Shown: in pieces, positions 1 through 6,000 of the stretch
Position numbering within the stretch: the first letter of the stretch is position 1
Layout: every line of letters starts with the position of its first letter
Origin: Escherichia coli
GTDB taxonomy: Bacteria > Pseudomonadota > Gammaproteobacteria > Enterobacterales > Enterobacteriaceae
Reading direction: 5' to 3' (one strand)
Length of the DNA stretch: 64,000 nt
Assembly (NCBI RefSeq): GCF_045037415.1
Contig: NZ_CP173440.1
Program-made: the position numbers

Positions 1-3000
1 GGCGCTACTCCGCTCAGGCGGGGGTTTATCATCTGAGCGTGATTACCAAAATGCTGGAGGATAAAATCGGTGCCCATGAAGCGGTACCTGAAGAACGTAA
101 ATCAGGGAAATGCAGGCTTTTTGATATTGGTTTCAGTGAAGAAGGCATCCCCCAGCCAGCCACGTTCATGTTATCCCTGTCTGCATGGTCGGCGGCTCAG
201 ATACTCAGGCATGATCGCGGCGTTTACGCTCTTCATGCTCCCCTTTGCTCCGATGTGTCCGACCTGCCCGCACCAAACGACAGCCTCCCGCTGGTGGATA
301 GCGGTTTTTACGATTTTGATAATCTGACTCTTCATCTCATGCAGTGGGTGGACAATGAGGCTTATCGATTACAGGAGGAGGGACAGAAGGCCGATACAGA
401 ATGGTTGAAGACGCTTGAGAAGCTGGTCATCGCAAAACTGTATTTTCCGGTAGAAGCCATGGATACGACGATCGTCAGTGTGGTTAAGTGTTCCCTGACC
501 AGGAAGGCGAAAGTCATCCAGGAAGACAGTGCAAAGAAAGACAATAAAAAGAAAGAAGCGGTGCCCGATGACCTCATTAACAGTTTTTTCATTCAGGAAC
601 TGCGAAATCTAGACGCGGAGTGGAGGCAAGGAGGGGGTGGGGCCGGTTTTAAAGACTTTATCATGGCGATAACCCGGGATAACCAACAGCGCCTCGATAT
701 ACGTACTGAAGAAGGCCTGGATTTTGCATTTGAGAAACTGTTGCCCACACAGCCACCAGCTGGCTCCTGGCCTTCAAAGTACCCGCTGGCATTCAGCCAG
801 CAGCTGGCCGTCAATGAAATCTGGACCAGAAATTACACTGAACCGGGTATTTTTGCTGTAAATGGTCCTCCGGGAACGGGGAAGACAACACTCCTGCGTG
901 ATGTGGTGGCCGCAGTCGTCACCGATCGGGCGAGAAAACTGGTTAAACTCGGAGACTCTGCATTTAAAGCCAAAGACAGCCTCAAATACGATGACAGGCT
1001 GATACCCTATTATTCGCTTCACCCGTCTCTGGCGGGGAGTGCCATCGTGATTGCATCGTCCAATAACGGAGCCGTGGAGAATATCTCACTTGAGCTCCCC
1101 GGGATGGAAGCGGTACCGGAGGATGTGTCAGATCGCAGCGATTACTTTGGCGGGCTGGCTACCGTAATACTTAACAGGCCTGCCTGGGGACTTCTGGCGG
1201 CAAGGCTGGGCAATAAAAGTAACAGAGAGCAGTTCGTTAACACACTGTGGTGGGGAAATCTGCAGAAAAGTGAAAAAGGCGATGAAGCACCTCCGGAGAA
1301 GTTTTCACCCGAACGTGGAGAGGGGCTGAAATACCATCTGAATTTACTGCGACCGCCACGGAAAGTCAGAGAGCCTGCACTGACCTGGACTGAGGCTGTC
1401 ACACGTTTTGAACAGGCACAGGCGGTGGAGGAAGCCGAGCGTCAGCAACTGGTCGCCAGTTCAGGGCTAACGCATAAAATTGAGTGGCTCGAAGAACAAC
1501 GAAGAGTGTGGGAAGAAAGGAAGCAAACCGCAACGCTTCAGATTGAGGAATGCCGGAACGCGCTACAGGCGCTCTCTGACAGACTCGCCGCGATGGAAAT
1601 GACCCTGACCCTGTCCAGTGGAGATCGGGACGAACTCGATCAGCGCATCCACCAGCATGAAAAAAATAAACCCGGCCTTCTGGCTAATCTCTTTTCGCTG
1701 GGGAGGATATCGAAGGCATGGTGGGATCGTTATCAACGGCTGACAGACGAATCAGATTCTTTGCGGGCGACGTTGACTCAGCAACGGCAGGAACTGCAGC
1801 TGGCGCAATCAGAAAAACATAATGCAGACAATGAACTCAGGAGCCTTGAGCGTGAGCTCACTCAGGTGATCAGCAACGGTCAGGCGGTCTGTAAAGAGCA
1901 GGAACAGAATAATACCTTGCTGAAGCAGGCTATATCCGATCTGGGAGCCTCCTGGCCGGAGCGGACTGCAACAGATGAACGAAGGGAGTTGTCAGCACCA
2001 TGGCTTCATGAGCGCTGGAGAAAGGCGAGGGAAGATGTGTTTATCGCAGCATTAGACGTTCACCGGGCGTTTATTGAAAATAATCCTGTAAAAATGGCCG
2101 CTAATATAGGGCTTGCAATGGACTGGTTAAAAGGGCGAAAACTGACCGAAAAACAGGCGGGTCTGGCTCTCGACTCCTTATCTCTGGTCGTCCCGGTTAT
2201 ATCAAGCACCTTTGCGTCCATGCCCCGGATGTTCAGGGATACAGGTCAGGAAGCGATAGGCTGGTTGCTGATTGATGAAGCCGGACAGGCACAACCTCAG
2301 CATGCGATTGGGGCTATCTGGAGAGCAAAACGCACGGTTCTGGTAGGTGACCCAAAACAACTGGAGCCGGTCAGCGGTATTCCGTCCACTGTAGAGGGGG
2401 CGCTGGGAAAACATTATAAGATCCCGTCCTGCTGGTGGCCCGGAAAAGTCTCAGCACAGATACTGGCAGACCAGACGATGAACGTTGGCCCCTATCTGCC
2501 CGACCCGGAGTCAGAACAGATTTGGGTGGGCTGTCCGTTACGGGTTCACCGGCGCTGTGATGACCCAATGTTCAGTATCAGTAACCATATTGCCTATGAC
2601 GGGCTCATGGTCCACGGGAAAAAGCCGGGCCTGGTGGATTTCCCTGAAAGCGGATGGCTGGATGTGAAAGGGAGGACATGCGAGGGAAACTGGGTAGTGG
2701 AGGAAGGGGCGGCAGTGGAAAAGTTACTTTTGGCGTTGCGTCACCAGTATTCACTCACACCTGACGACGTGTTTCTGATCTCGCCATTCAAGGACTGCGC
2801 TAAGCAGCTTAACCGGATCGCAAAGAGGCTGGGATTCAGGATGGACAGAACGGGGACCGTACATAAAACACAGGGCAAGGAAGCTACTGTGGTTATCCTC
2901 GTGCTGGGAGGCAACATAAAAAGTCAGGGGGCGAAAGCCTGGGCGGCGGAAAAACCCAATCTTCTGAACGTCGCGGTAAGCAGGGCGAAACAACGCATTT

Positions 3001-6000
3001 ATGTCATCGGCGAGCGTGCATTATGGGAGAAGCAACCTTACTTTTCCACGCTGTCCCGGGCACTGGGAAGGCTGGATGTGCCGGTGAGCAACAGCAACCC
3101 GCGTGCGATGTCATATATGGAAGAGTACTTAACCACTGAATGGCGCTGATAAGCGCCAGGTCTGCCAGCTGTCTAATGCGGTATCGACCGCAATACCGGG
3201 TGACTATGACATGCCTGAGGGATGATAATCAGTCGGATATCTGCCTCTAATCTTTTCCTGATATTCCCTGCCGGACCATCAGCGTATGCAGGTGAGGCAG
3301 GGAGGTCTTCCCTCTGGTTTAGCAAGTTACTCATAAACGCTCGCCGACTTGTGAACTGGACACCAAAAGTTGGACCCTCACCAGGGCAACCAGCGAAGGT
3401 GCAGTAAAAGTTACTTTTATCTATAGGATTGCCAGGATTGCTGATGAGAGTTGTTAGCGAGCTTACCTGTTACCTCGGGAGGATTCTGCTTTACACGATC
3501 AAGACCGGTCCATGCATTGAGCTGCATCATTTTGCCGTTACGCTGCAGACGCCGGTTATAACGTTCCATAAATTTGAAAATATAGTTGGCTCTTACGCGA
3601 GGCGTTTTACTGTTGTAGTCAGCAATACCTTCAAACACGTTCCCTTTACGGTCAATAATTTTCCGGTGCAGCCACCATGTCCCAACCCAAAAAGAAGCAC
3701 AGGCGTCATAAGCGAGCTCACGCCAGGTAATTGCGGGGAAGTGGGATTTCACCTCAGCCAGATTTGATGAGTTAATCTGCATTGGGCCAATATCCCATGT
3801 GCCATTGGTGTTAAGGACGAAAGAGCCAATCTTTCCACCTTCGTTATCAAAAAGAGTAAAGACAAGGTCACGGTCAATCCCGAAGAAACGCGCGGCGTCA
3901 GTTAAACATTCGTTTTTAACCGTTTCGGGTACATTTTGGGGCTTCGGTCGATCCGGTGGGGGATTGAATGCTGCATTTGCATTGACGGTTAAAGTGGCGA
4001 ACAGCACCGCTCCAAAAAATAATCTAGTCATTAACCAGCTCCTCAAAAGTAACTTTTACAGGTTACACGACAACAAAAAATTTTTTTTCCTATACCGGGG
4101 GGAAATGCCTCCTGGTCGGAAAAATATTTTTTTTTGTTTGATACAGTATTTAAGGAGGTAGGACATGATTAAACCCATTGCAGTTGCTCTGATATTGTTA
4201 ACTCCATCGGCCTATGCTGATGTTGATTTACCTGCAGAATTAAAGGACAAAATTGAAGCCGTTGGTATCAACCCCGTCTCTGCAGAGAAATCTCCGGTAA
4301 GTGGTATTTACTCAGTCTTTTCAAAAGAAGGGACGAGTTACGTCACGTCTGACGGTGAATACATCTTCACCGGAAATTTATTCAAAGTGAAAGGGACAGA
4401 AGTGGAAAACACCACGGACGAGTTTATCAGTAAAGGGATGCGATCCTATATTGAGAAGCTCGATACTATCACCTACAAAGCACCAGATGAGAAATATGTC
4501 ATCGGTGTTTTTACTGATATCACCTGTGGCTTTTGCCAGAAACTACATAGCGACCTGCAATCCTATCTGGATAAAGGCATCACTATTAAATTCATCGCAT
4601 ACCCACGTGCCGGGATGAACTCCATGATAGCCCGAAACATGGCATCTGTCTGGTGTGCAGATGACAAACCTGCAGCTTTAACCAGAGCAATGAAAGGGGA
4701 TGGTTTGCCTGAAAAGCAACCGACAAAGACCTGCATGGACTCCATTCAGAGCCAATTTAATGCAGGGAACATGTTCAAACTCTCAGGCACGCCTAGCGGT
4801 TTAAGCCTGAAAGGTGAGCCGATGGTATTTGCGGGGTTACGTGACCCTGACCAGATGCTGAACAGCCTGAAAACGGCCAATCAGAAAAAATAACTCTCCG
4901 GGAGCAACAATGAAGAAATTAATTGCAGTGGCAGCGGTAGTGGTTGTTTCATTTGCCGCCCAATCCAGCGTTTGCGGGCCAGTTGCGTGCAAAGTTACTT
5001 TCGTCGATGTCGACGGCTCGCAAAAGCCGATCATGCTTCTCGATGACAAAGTTTCAACGCGGAAGAGCTCAATGAACCGTGTATTTGATGATGTGTACTC
5101 GCACGGCCGTAAGGTCCAGACTGACCTGAAATCAACCACTCCAGCTGCCGGGCATCCTGATAAATCATCACCCGTGCAAATGAGCAGGGAATTAAGTCCT
5201 GTGGTCATCTACAGCGCATAAAACGGAGTCTCTCATGGGATTAATCAGAACAGTGGTATACGTGGGTATCATTGGAGGCATCTTTGCCTATACACAAACA
5301 AAAGATAGCCTTGAAAATATTTCGGTTCCGGATGCGGAGTTTCCATCGTCAATCTCCAGGAATAACTTTATACAATCGACATGGGTGAACGAGCATTACA
5401 CTTCACTGAAGAATGGCCCGATTGCTGACGGTATATCCAGTATTCTGGATGATGCTCAGGATATCAGGGGGTCTGTCAATAATGTTGTCATGACGGCCGG
5501 TAATGTCGATATCCAGAAGGCTATTCAGGATGCAGTGGATGAACTAGACAGCAATAGCCGTAAATCCAGTAAGTAAAATGGCTCTCAGAACCATCAGATA
5601 CGCCTGTTTAAAATAAAATAACTCAGAGATAAATCATGGAAAATAAACAAAGCACTAAAAAACAAACTCTGATTCACATCGCCTTGGTAGTAGGTGGTTT
5701 TGTTGCTGGTTCGGTAATTTGGGGGAATGGCAGTAATATTATGAACTCAAATGACTCGGCTAATGAGTCTGTCAAAAAACAGCAAATCGAACTGGCAAAT
5801 AGATTCAATGCATTAGCTCAAACAGCGAACCAGGTAAATAAGCCAGCCGGTTTAGTCCTGACTGAGCAGGACAAGGAACTTATTGGAAAAACTGCGGCAC
5901 AGTATTTGATCGAACATCCAGAGAACCTGGTGGAAGCTGGTAAGCGCCTTGAAGCCAACCGAGATGGTGAAAAAACCTCAGACGTTGTGAATACAAAAGA

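Follow-up and report, generated by a model that had tools for sequence, protein, structure and literature searches.

A plasmid-borne Upf1-like helicase related to Mokosh MkoC belongs to an unnamed nuclease-free family with a possible role in genetic conflict

Does a large helicase with a long coiled-coil insertion, encoded among the transfer genes of a conjugative plasmid, belong to one of the known bacterial defence systems? This question is raised by a stretch of Escherichia coli DNA (contig NZ_CP173440.1, assembly GCF_045037415.1; 64,000 nucleotides, here called the window), which opens within the gene of a superfamily 1 (SF1) helicase. A first-pass annotation had regarded the protein as a component of a defence system such as Nhi or Mokosh and had placed the N-terminal effector domain that would decide between these outside the window. 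Our analysis assigns the gene product, a stand-alone protein, to a large and hitherto unnamed family of Upf1-like SF1B helicases; the protein is a relative of the Mokosh type II helicase MkoC and not a member of that group. The reading we favour, at a probability of roughly 0.5, is that of a stand-alone, nuclease-free Upf1-like helicase acting in genetic conflict or defence.

The gene is a single open frame, and Pfam detects in its product a split AAA_11 plus AAA_12 pattern, as is typical for Upf1-like SF1 helicases, and no other domain, so that the description as a large SF1 helicase truncated at the window edge holds. We took the full coding sequence from an essentially identical plasmid (L001, one nucleotide difference in 3,200), and offset mapping places the first residue of the window at residue 66 of the protein. 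The complete product, WP_084456091.1, has 1,113 residues, starts with GTG and is annotated as 'DEAD/DEAH box helicase' (L001:11808-15149). Because 65 codons alone (195 nucleotides) are cut off, the premise of a deciding N-terminal domain outside the window was wrong: the N-terminal domain lies mostly within the window, no nuclease or phospholipase D (PLD) domain is present in the full 1,113-residue protein, and an effector domain hidden upstream is ruled out. The predicted architecture is as follows, with window coordinates:

3-3149, plus strand: helicase gene, codons 66-1113 and stop (3147-3149), the first 65 codons being upstream of the window
3-761, plus strand: conserved N-terminal domain, in-window residues 66-318, matching no known fold
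786-818, plus strand: Q-motif-like LAFSQQLAVNE directly before the ATPase core; S330, Q331, Q332 and N336 invariant
864-887, plus strand: Walker A motif GPPGTGKT, residues 353-360, invariant in 74 of 74 homologues
963-1367, plus strand: beta-rich, 1B-like insertion in RecA1, residues 386-520, with AlphaFold strands at 386-394, 397-404 and 413-417
1386-1952, plus strand: antiparallel coiled-coil arm, residues 527-715, long helices with a predicted local confidence (pLDDT) of ~77-97
1644-1742, plus strand: tip of the coiled coil, residues 613-645; P622 and W638 invariant, G623 and G632 nearly so, mean conservation 0.51
2268-2288, plus strand: motif II (Walker B) LIDEAGQ, residues 821-827; D823, E824 and Q827 invariant
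2388-3062, plus strand: RecA2 domain, residues 861-1085, supported by Pfam AAA_12, invariant residues and the BLASTP alignment to genuine MkoC
2490, plus strand: single-base variant, C where both reference plasmids have A (ACC to CCC, T895P), the position being invariant across all 74 homologues
2967-2990, plus strand: motif VI NVAVSRAK, residues 1054-1061, invariant in the family

The full-length AlphaFold2 model, built with 74 homologues in the alignment, is of high confidence (mean pLDDT 89.6, predicted TM-score 0.84) and contains two RecA domains, the SF1B motifs and a stalk/barrel insertion in RecA1, i.e. the features of the Upf1-like SF1B superfamily. Foldseek against the PDB returned Senataxin/Sen1, Upf1, Dna2, Aquarius and IGHMBP2 as best matches (E-values of 6e-15 to 1e-10) and also ZNFX1, in agreement with the Upf1/Dna2-like core proposed earlier. 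By its position, as in Upf1-like helicases, the beta-rich region of residues 386-520 is probably the equivalent of domain 1B. All motifs of the predicted ATPase/helicase core are intact across the aligned family. A coiled coil of roughly 250 residues had been proposed between the Walker A region and motif II; its existence and location are borne out by the predicted helices (527-552, 554-619 and 633-715, all confident in the model) and by a hydrophobic period of 3.5 residues in the two long arms, whereas its length is to be corrected to ~190 residues within a total insert of ~460. The segment consists to 41% of charged residues or Gln, and among homologues the length of the arm is kept at 167-218 residues while its sequence conservation is low (mean 0.27-0.29).

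The T895P exchange in the RecA2 domain of the window copy stems either from an error of sequencing within the run GGCCCC or from a change private to this copy that may inactivate the protein. No perfect match to this copy occurs among the database records listed, and all best matches share one sub-perfect bit score.

The N-terminal domain (residues 1 to ~318, ~320 residues) is a conserved alpha/beta plus helical unit with the recurring motifs FWxAIEALTPQ, WRYxxQCGxY, SRLFDLxFD and DDLLNSFFI. A profile search with this domain retrieved 1,402 clusters out of 1.84 billion representatives, and among the full-length matches listed the domain is always found at the N-terminus of proteins of ~1,000-1,340 residues. 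No named fold could be assigned to it. Pfam gave no N-terminal match in the query and nothing consistent over 23 family members, a profile search against PDB sequences returned nothing at E <= 10, and Foldseek against BFVD returned nothing below E = 0.2. The few invariant polar residues of the domain compose no known nuclease motif, and no SmpB-like, RelE-like or winged helix-turn-helix (wHTH) domain was detected in it. An MkoC-type N-terminal region was considered and rejected, with a profile-profile probability of 0.3% in hhalign; the Q-motif-like segment is the sole N-terminal part that can be aligned with MkoC.

Among the defence-system models of the PADLOC library, the best match is MkoC of Mokosh type II (E = 3e-70, 235 bits), supporting the proposed kinship, but this match is partial. 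Profile positions 241-952 of 1136 align to residues 319-1078, positions 952-1136 remain unmatched, and the same partial pattern is seen in nine further proteins, five from the family and four more distantly related. As positive control we used four genuine MkoC genes from viral contigs (L034, L037, L039 and L040), which score 971-1518 bits over profile positions 1-1135 and also match MkoB; their tails of ~180 residues carry the signature HSKIVxxD...GSxNW. The C-terminal PLD domain defines Mokosh type II, and mutations of its active site abolish defence (Millman preprint). In comparison, the helicase studied here ends ~35 residues past the core, the tail following motif VI has a median length of 43 residues in 156 family members, and the HxK(x4)D motif is found neither in the 1,113-residue protein nor in these 156 tails. 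No PLD is present in seven longer family members of 1,213-1,336 residues, either. Pairwise identity to genuine MkoC is 25% and is confined to RecA1b-RecA2 (BLASTP). No PLD or other nuclease is encoded in the protein or its neighbours (Pfam on eight flanking genes, PADLOC on five), nor is an MkoB-like gene present among the five flanking genes scanned with PADLOC. Because of the partial 235-bit match compared to 971-1518 bits over the full profile, and because a PLD is absent, we conclude that the helicase is a relative of MkoC and not a member of Mokosh. The alternative assignment to Nhi fails, since the match to the Nhi profile is restricted to residues 323-376 around Walker A (E = 8e-6). Of the proposal of a Nhi or Mokosh component, kinship to MkoC remains and membership in either system does not. 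Classifiers accepting partial profile matches may mislabel this protein as Mokosh type II.

The first-pass annotation had named two findings that together would speak against its proposal, i.e. the lack of an effector domain and a grouping with conjugative or replicative helicases. We found the former, no effector domain being recognisable, and not the latter, as the models of such helicases are unmatched with 32.7 bits for RecD2 (cut-off 500) and 24.5 bits for RecD (cut-off 310). For its relaxase the plasmid has a distinct MobH protein.

The same DNA, at 98.6-100% identity, is found on plasmids of 14 of the 5,426 complete E. coli genomes and on no chromosome, and it is present on 582 plasmids of PLSDB, 550 of these from Klebsiella and 569 predicted to be conjugative. 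The window is collinear with pKpvST147B_virulence (NZ_CP040726), a plasmid of type IncFIB/IncHI1B, MOBH and MPF_F. The gene order is mobI, mobH, traD, then traF, traH, traG, followed by a few small variable open reading frames (ORFs) and the helicase; downstream are SLT (a transglycosylase gene on the minus strand), DsbC, two small genes, DsbA and HAD. Scans of the region for Rfam families, repeats, promoters and terminators gave nothing above chance. An identical gene order is kept in two diverged plasmid lineages, the helicases there being 79% and 58% identical to the one studied here. Between diverged plasmid pairs the helicase ranks first or near the top of the syntenic genes in divergence, with a rate of nonsynonymous substitution (dN) of 0.13-0.34 compared to 0.013-0.078 for TraF, TraH, SLT and DsbC in the same pairs (~2-26-fold). 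The ratio of nonsynonymous to synonymous rates (dN/dS) is 0.11-0.19, from which we conclude that the helicase is under purifying selection.

Within IncHI2 plasmids, which share the backbone, the slot between traG and SLT is occupied by a protein of 430 residues with an HNH endonuclease motif (L015 19532-20821, NZ_CP117034) and a gene encoding a HAD domain; apparently, this site is a hotspot for cargo that acts on nucleic acids. TraH homologues are present in 1,921 plasmids, including 499 from Escherichia, 341 from Salmonella and 274 from Enterobacter, while the helicase is found in only ~600 of these, nearly all from Klebsiella/Raoultella, the total of plasmid records with any match to the protein being 737. 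Several alleles depart from the intact gene. A common one lacks codons 1-148, which are replaced by an unrelated ORF of 92 residues (L023 8704-11899, NZ_CP068707, and other IncHI1B plasmids), and is annotated as an intact protein of 964 residues; further IncHI1B plasmids carry insertions of the IS3 family interrupting the gene, and a conjugation assay yielded a plasmid with one such truncated or insertion sequence (IS)-disrupted allele. The HNH occupant of IncHI2, the presence in ~600 of the 1,921 TraH plasmids and the persistence of truncated and IS-disrupted alleles together mark the helicase as cargo specific to certain lineages, carried in a variable slot within the transfer region, and argue against a part in core conjugation.

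Beyond these plasmids, more than 120 full-length homologues with 37-79% identity and 96-100% coverage are distributed across Gamma-, Beta- and Deltaproteobacteria, and their identities do not track taxonomy, which argues for horizontal spread. We read 13 genomic contexts and searched for partners in an all-against-all comparison of neighbours within 4 kb at 11 independent loci; no conserved partner gene was found across these loci, the only synteny being lineage-specific (L009-L012). The settings are diverse:

L001, L011, L062: slots among plasmid tra genes
L004, L017: two betaproteobacterial (Acidovorax-type) MOBH integrative and conjugative elements (ICEs), with TraI_2 relaxase, DsbC and a T2SSE ATPase nearby
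L002: Chromobacterium island, the helicase being directly followed by PsyrTA (975 and 478 bits) and Lamassu LmuACB
L006: end of a P2-like prophage, beside ThiF/JAB genes
L016: toxin-immunity islet

A more distant relative is located in a Klebsiella prophage between two integrases and Gabija GajB. In the two betaproteobacterial ICEs a gene for 293 residues ends 13-18 nucleotides before the helicase start (L004 9101-9982, L017 9106-9987); it has no Pfam match, its copies are 48% identical, it is absent from all other helicase loci, and it may be a lineage-specific partner. The family member P0234 (1,336 residues) carries a C-terminal extension of ~320 residues (~1030-1336) with the motif VVDDVFLSGQT, resembling a phosphoribosyl pyrophosphate-binding motif. 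This phosphoribosyltransferase-like tail is similar to the C-terminal end of the profile for the PsyrT toxin (E = 2.6e-6) and represents a rare effector-like fusion.

The core kinship to MkoC, the PsyrTA/Lamassu and GajB neighbourhoods, the horizontal spread and the non-core position among the tra genes all support a role in genetic conflict. According to the model that we consider best, the helicase would translocate in an ATP-driven manner in 5' to 3' direction on single-stranded RNA or DNA, by analogy with Upf1, Senataxin and Dna2, with the N-terminal domain serving as a sensor or dock for a foreign nucleic acid or protein and the tip of the coiled coil contacting a partner or another copy of the helicase for docking or dimerisation. 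An invading phage or competing mobile element would be hindered by its replication or transcription intermediates being unwound or stripped; alternatively, an unlinked host nuclease might be recruited, the helicase itself not cutting nucleic acids. On IncHI1B-type Klebsiella plasmids the gene would act as fixed cargo in the variable slot of the transfer region, outside the conjugation machine. Several points weigh against this model. The case for defence is drawn from homology of the core and from a handful of neighbourhoods, and with a nuclease being absent the means of harming an invader is unexplained. Literature searches returned no paper about this helicase, none about Mokosh in plasmids of the IncHI1B type and no experiment on the family. 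Several family members are located at ordinary chromosomal sites, and the constant place among the tra genes in three diverged plasmid lineages, as well as the MOBH relaxase adjoining the helicase in the betaproteobacterial ICEs, could point to a role in transfer.

Such a role, an accessory helicase of MOBH/MPF_F transfer which processes the transferred strand or RNA/DNA hybrids at the origin of transfer, or which aids establishment in the recipient, would fit the fixed site between traG and SLT/DsbC/DsbA, the TraI_2 relaxase, DsbC and T2SSE ATPase beside the Acidovorax-type homologues and the purifying selection. We nevertheless consider it unlikely, as the gene is absent from ~1,230 IncHI1/IncHI2-type plasmids with TrhH at ~50% identity, the IncHI2 slot holding the HNH protein instead, as most family members reside outside conjugative elements, as truncated and IS-disrupted alleles persist and as models of relaxase-type and RecD-type helicases are unmatched. 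Somewhat less probable again is a split system with the helicase as sensor of the invader; via the conserved tip of its coiled-coil arm it would recruit an effector nuclease whose gene lies at another site of the plasmid or in the chromosome. Complexes of a nuclease with an NTPase are the norm in such defence systems, related helicases use nucleases, as in the pairs MkoA-MkoB of Mokosh type I (Millman preprint) and CnuH-CnuE, the latter with a contact predicted via the helical insertion (Bell et al. 2024, PMC11090510), and the tip is conserved while the arms are not. This view would, however, need a universal unlinked partner across very different hosts, no gene being kept near the helicase over the 11 independent loci and no neighbour matching PADLOC. 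A doubtful variant of the defence role, which we weight slightly lower still, has the helicase guarding pilus-bearing cells against pilus-specific phages with single-stranded RNA or DNA, or against incoming single-stranded DNA of rival plasmids, by translocating along the invader's nucleic acid with the orphan N-terminal domain as sensor. The defence reported for type II Mokosh is limited to a phage with single-stranded DNA. If true, guarding would be a nuclease-free mode of defence and would account for the family's presence inside unrelated MOBH transfer regions.

The remaining explanations deny a role in conflict or any function at all. With Senataxin/Sen1 and Upf1 as nearest solved folds and several members in ordinary chromosomal neighbourhoods, the protein might be a housekeeping-type RNA/DNA helicase, acting for example on R-loops or on collisions of transcription and replication; the patchy distribution with identities independent of taxonomy, the presence in no more than 14 of 5,426 complete E. 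coli genomes, in each case on a plasmid, the frequent carriage by mobile elements and defence islands and the fast divergence of the protein sequence make this quite improbable. A decayed, non-functional Mokosh type II gene having lost its PLD, as the best profile match to MkoC and the exchange T895P at an invariant residue might suggest, is very improbable: the PLD-less build is constant in more than 150 members with all ATPase motifs invariant, MkoC has an unrelated N-terminal domain, dN/dS indicates constraint and the identity to genuine MkoC is a mere 25%. From this constant architecture, the unrelated N-terminus, the dN/dS values and the low identity we conclude that the PLD-less helicases, judged by their sequences, are a separate lineage of long standing, rather than a recently formed Mokosh remnant.

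Further features were observed elsewhere in the window. At 52550/52551, compared to NZ_CP040726, ~2.5 kb are missing beside an IS1 copy, removing the 3' end of rmpA together with rmpD, rmpC and peg-344, which are markers of hypermucoidy and virulence. Positions 55965-57496 on the minus strand encode a type I-E Cas6e and an adjacent 'DEAD/DEAH box helicase' of ~320 residues beside an IS5 copy; the latter is possibly a Cas3 fragment, and the locus looks like a CRISPR-Cas remnant in the virulence region. The region 23000-41000 contains paralogues of the zinc-dependent proteins zigA, folE2, dksA, cysS, hisI, carbonic anhydrase, hemB and dihydroorotase and a fragment of threonyl-tRNA synthetase together with two transcriptional repressors, and looks like a plasmid-borne regulon for zinc limitation (Zur-type).

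As a stand-alone helicase in genetic conflict, the protein would be of relevance beyond this plasmid. IncHI1B/IncFIB hybrids, nearly all of which carry the helicase (~600 PLSDB plasmids), disseminate carbapenem resistance and hypervirulence among Klebsiella pneumoniae, and a defence or exclusion factor would bear on phage therapy and plasmid competition in those clones. The family comprises ~1,400 clusters at 50% identity, has no name, and its members carry no annotation beyond 'DEAD/DEAH box helicase' or 'AAA domain-containing protein'. The family would provide an example of a Mokosh-type helicase chassis working without a nuclease, which is relevant to Upf1-like helicases in immunity from bacteria to animals.

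Comparison with known systems places the helicase among Upf1-like proteins with distinct accessory equipment. MkoC (Millman et al. 2022; PADLOC PDLC03924) is likewise a single large protein of ~1,100-1,200 residues. Its Upf1-like (COG1112) SF1B core has an intact ATP site and a large insertion of helices separating Walker A from motif II, and the protein is also carried on mobile elements; in contrast to the helicase described here, it has a C-terminal PLD nuclease and an N-terminal region of its own. For Mokosh type I, the RecA2 region matches MkoA profiles (E = 2e-24), whereas the serine/threonine kinase domain and the adjacent PLD protein MkoB of that system are both lacking here. Nhi combines an N-terminal nuclease with a UvrD-like SF1 helicase, compared to a Upf1-like core and an N-terminal domain without nuclease fold in our protein. 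The CnuH proteins of CoCoNuT types II and III (PMC11090510) are also UPF1-like SF1 helicases, in which a large helical insertion, coiled coil in part, follows Walker A and the N-terminal domains vary, but their operons include the wHTH-nuclease CnuE and the McrBC-like CnuB/CnuC (PMC11090510), none of which adjoins this gene or occurs in the 11 loci. The eukaryotic helicases Upf1, Senataxin (Sen1), Dna2 and IGHMBP2 are the best structural matches for both RecA domains and the stalk-type insertion, at a sequence identity of ~11-20%; no CH, nuclease or other accessory domain is shared with them, and the stalk is drawn out here into a hairpin of ~190 residues.

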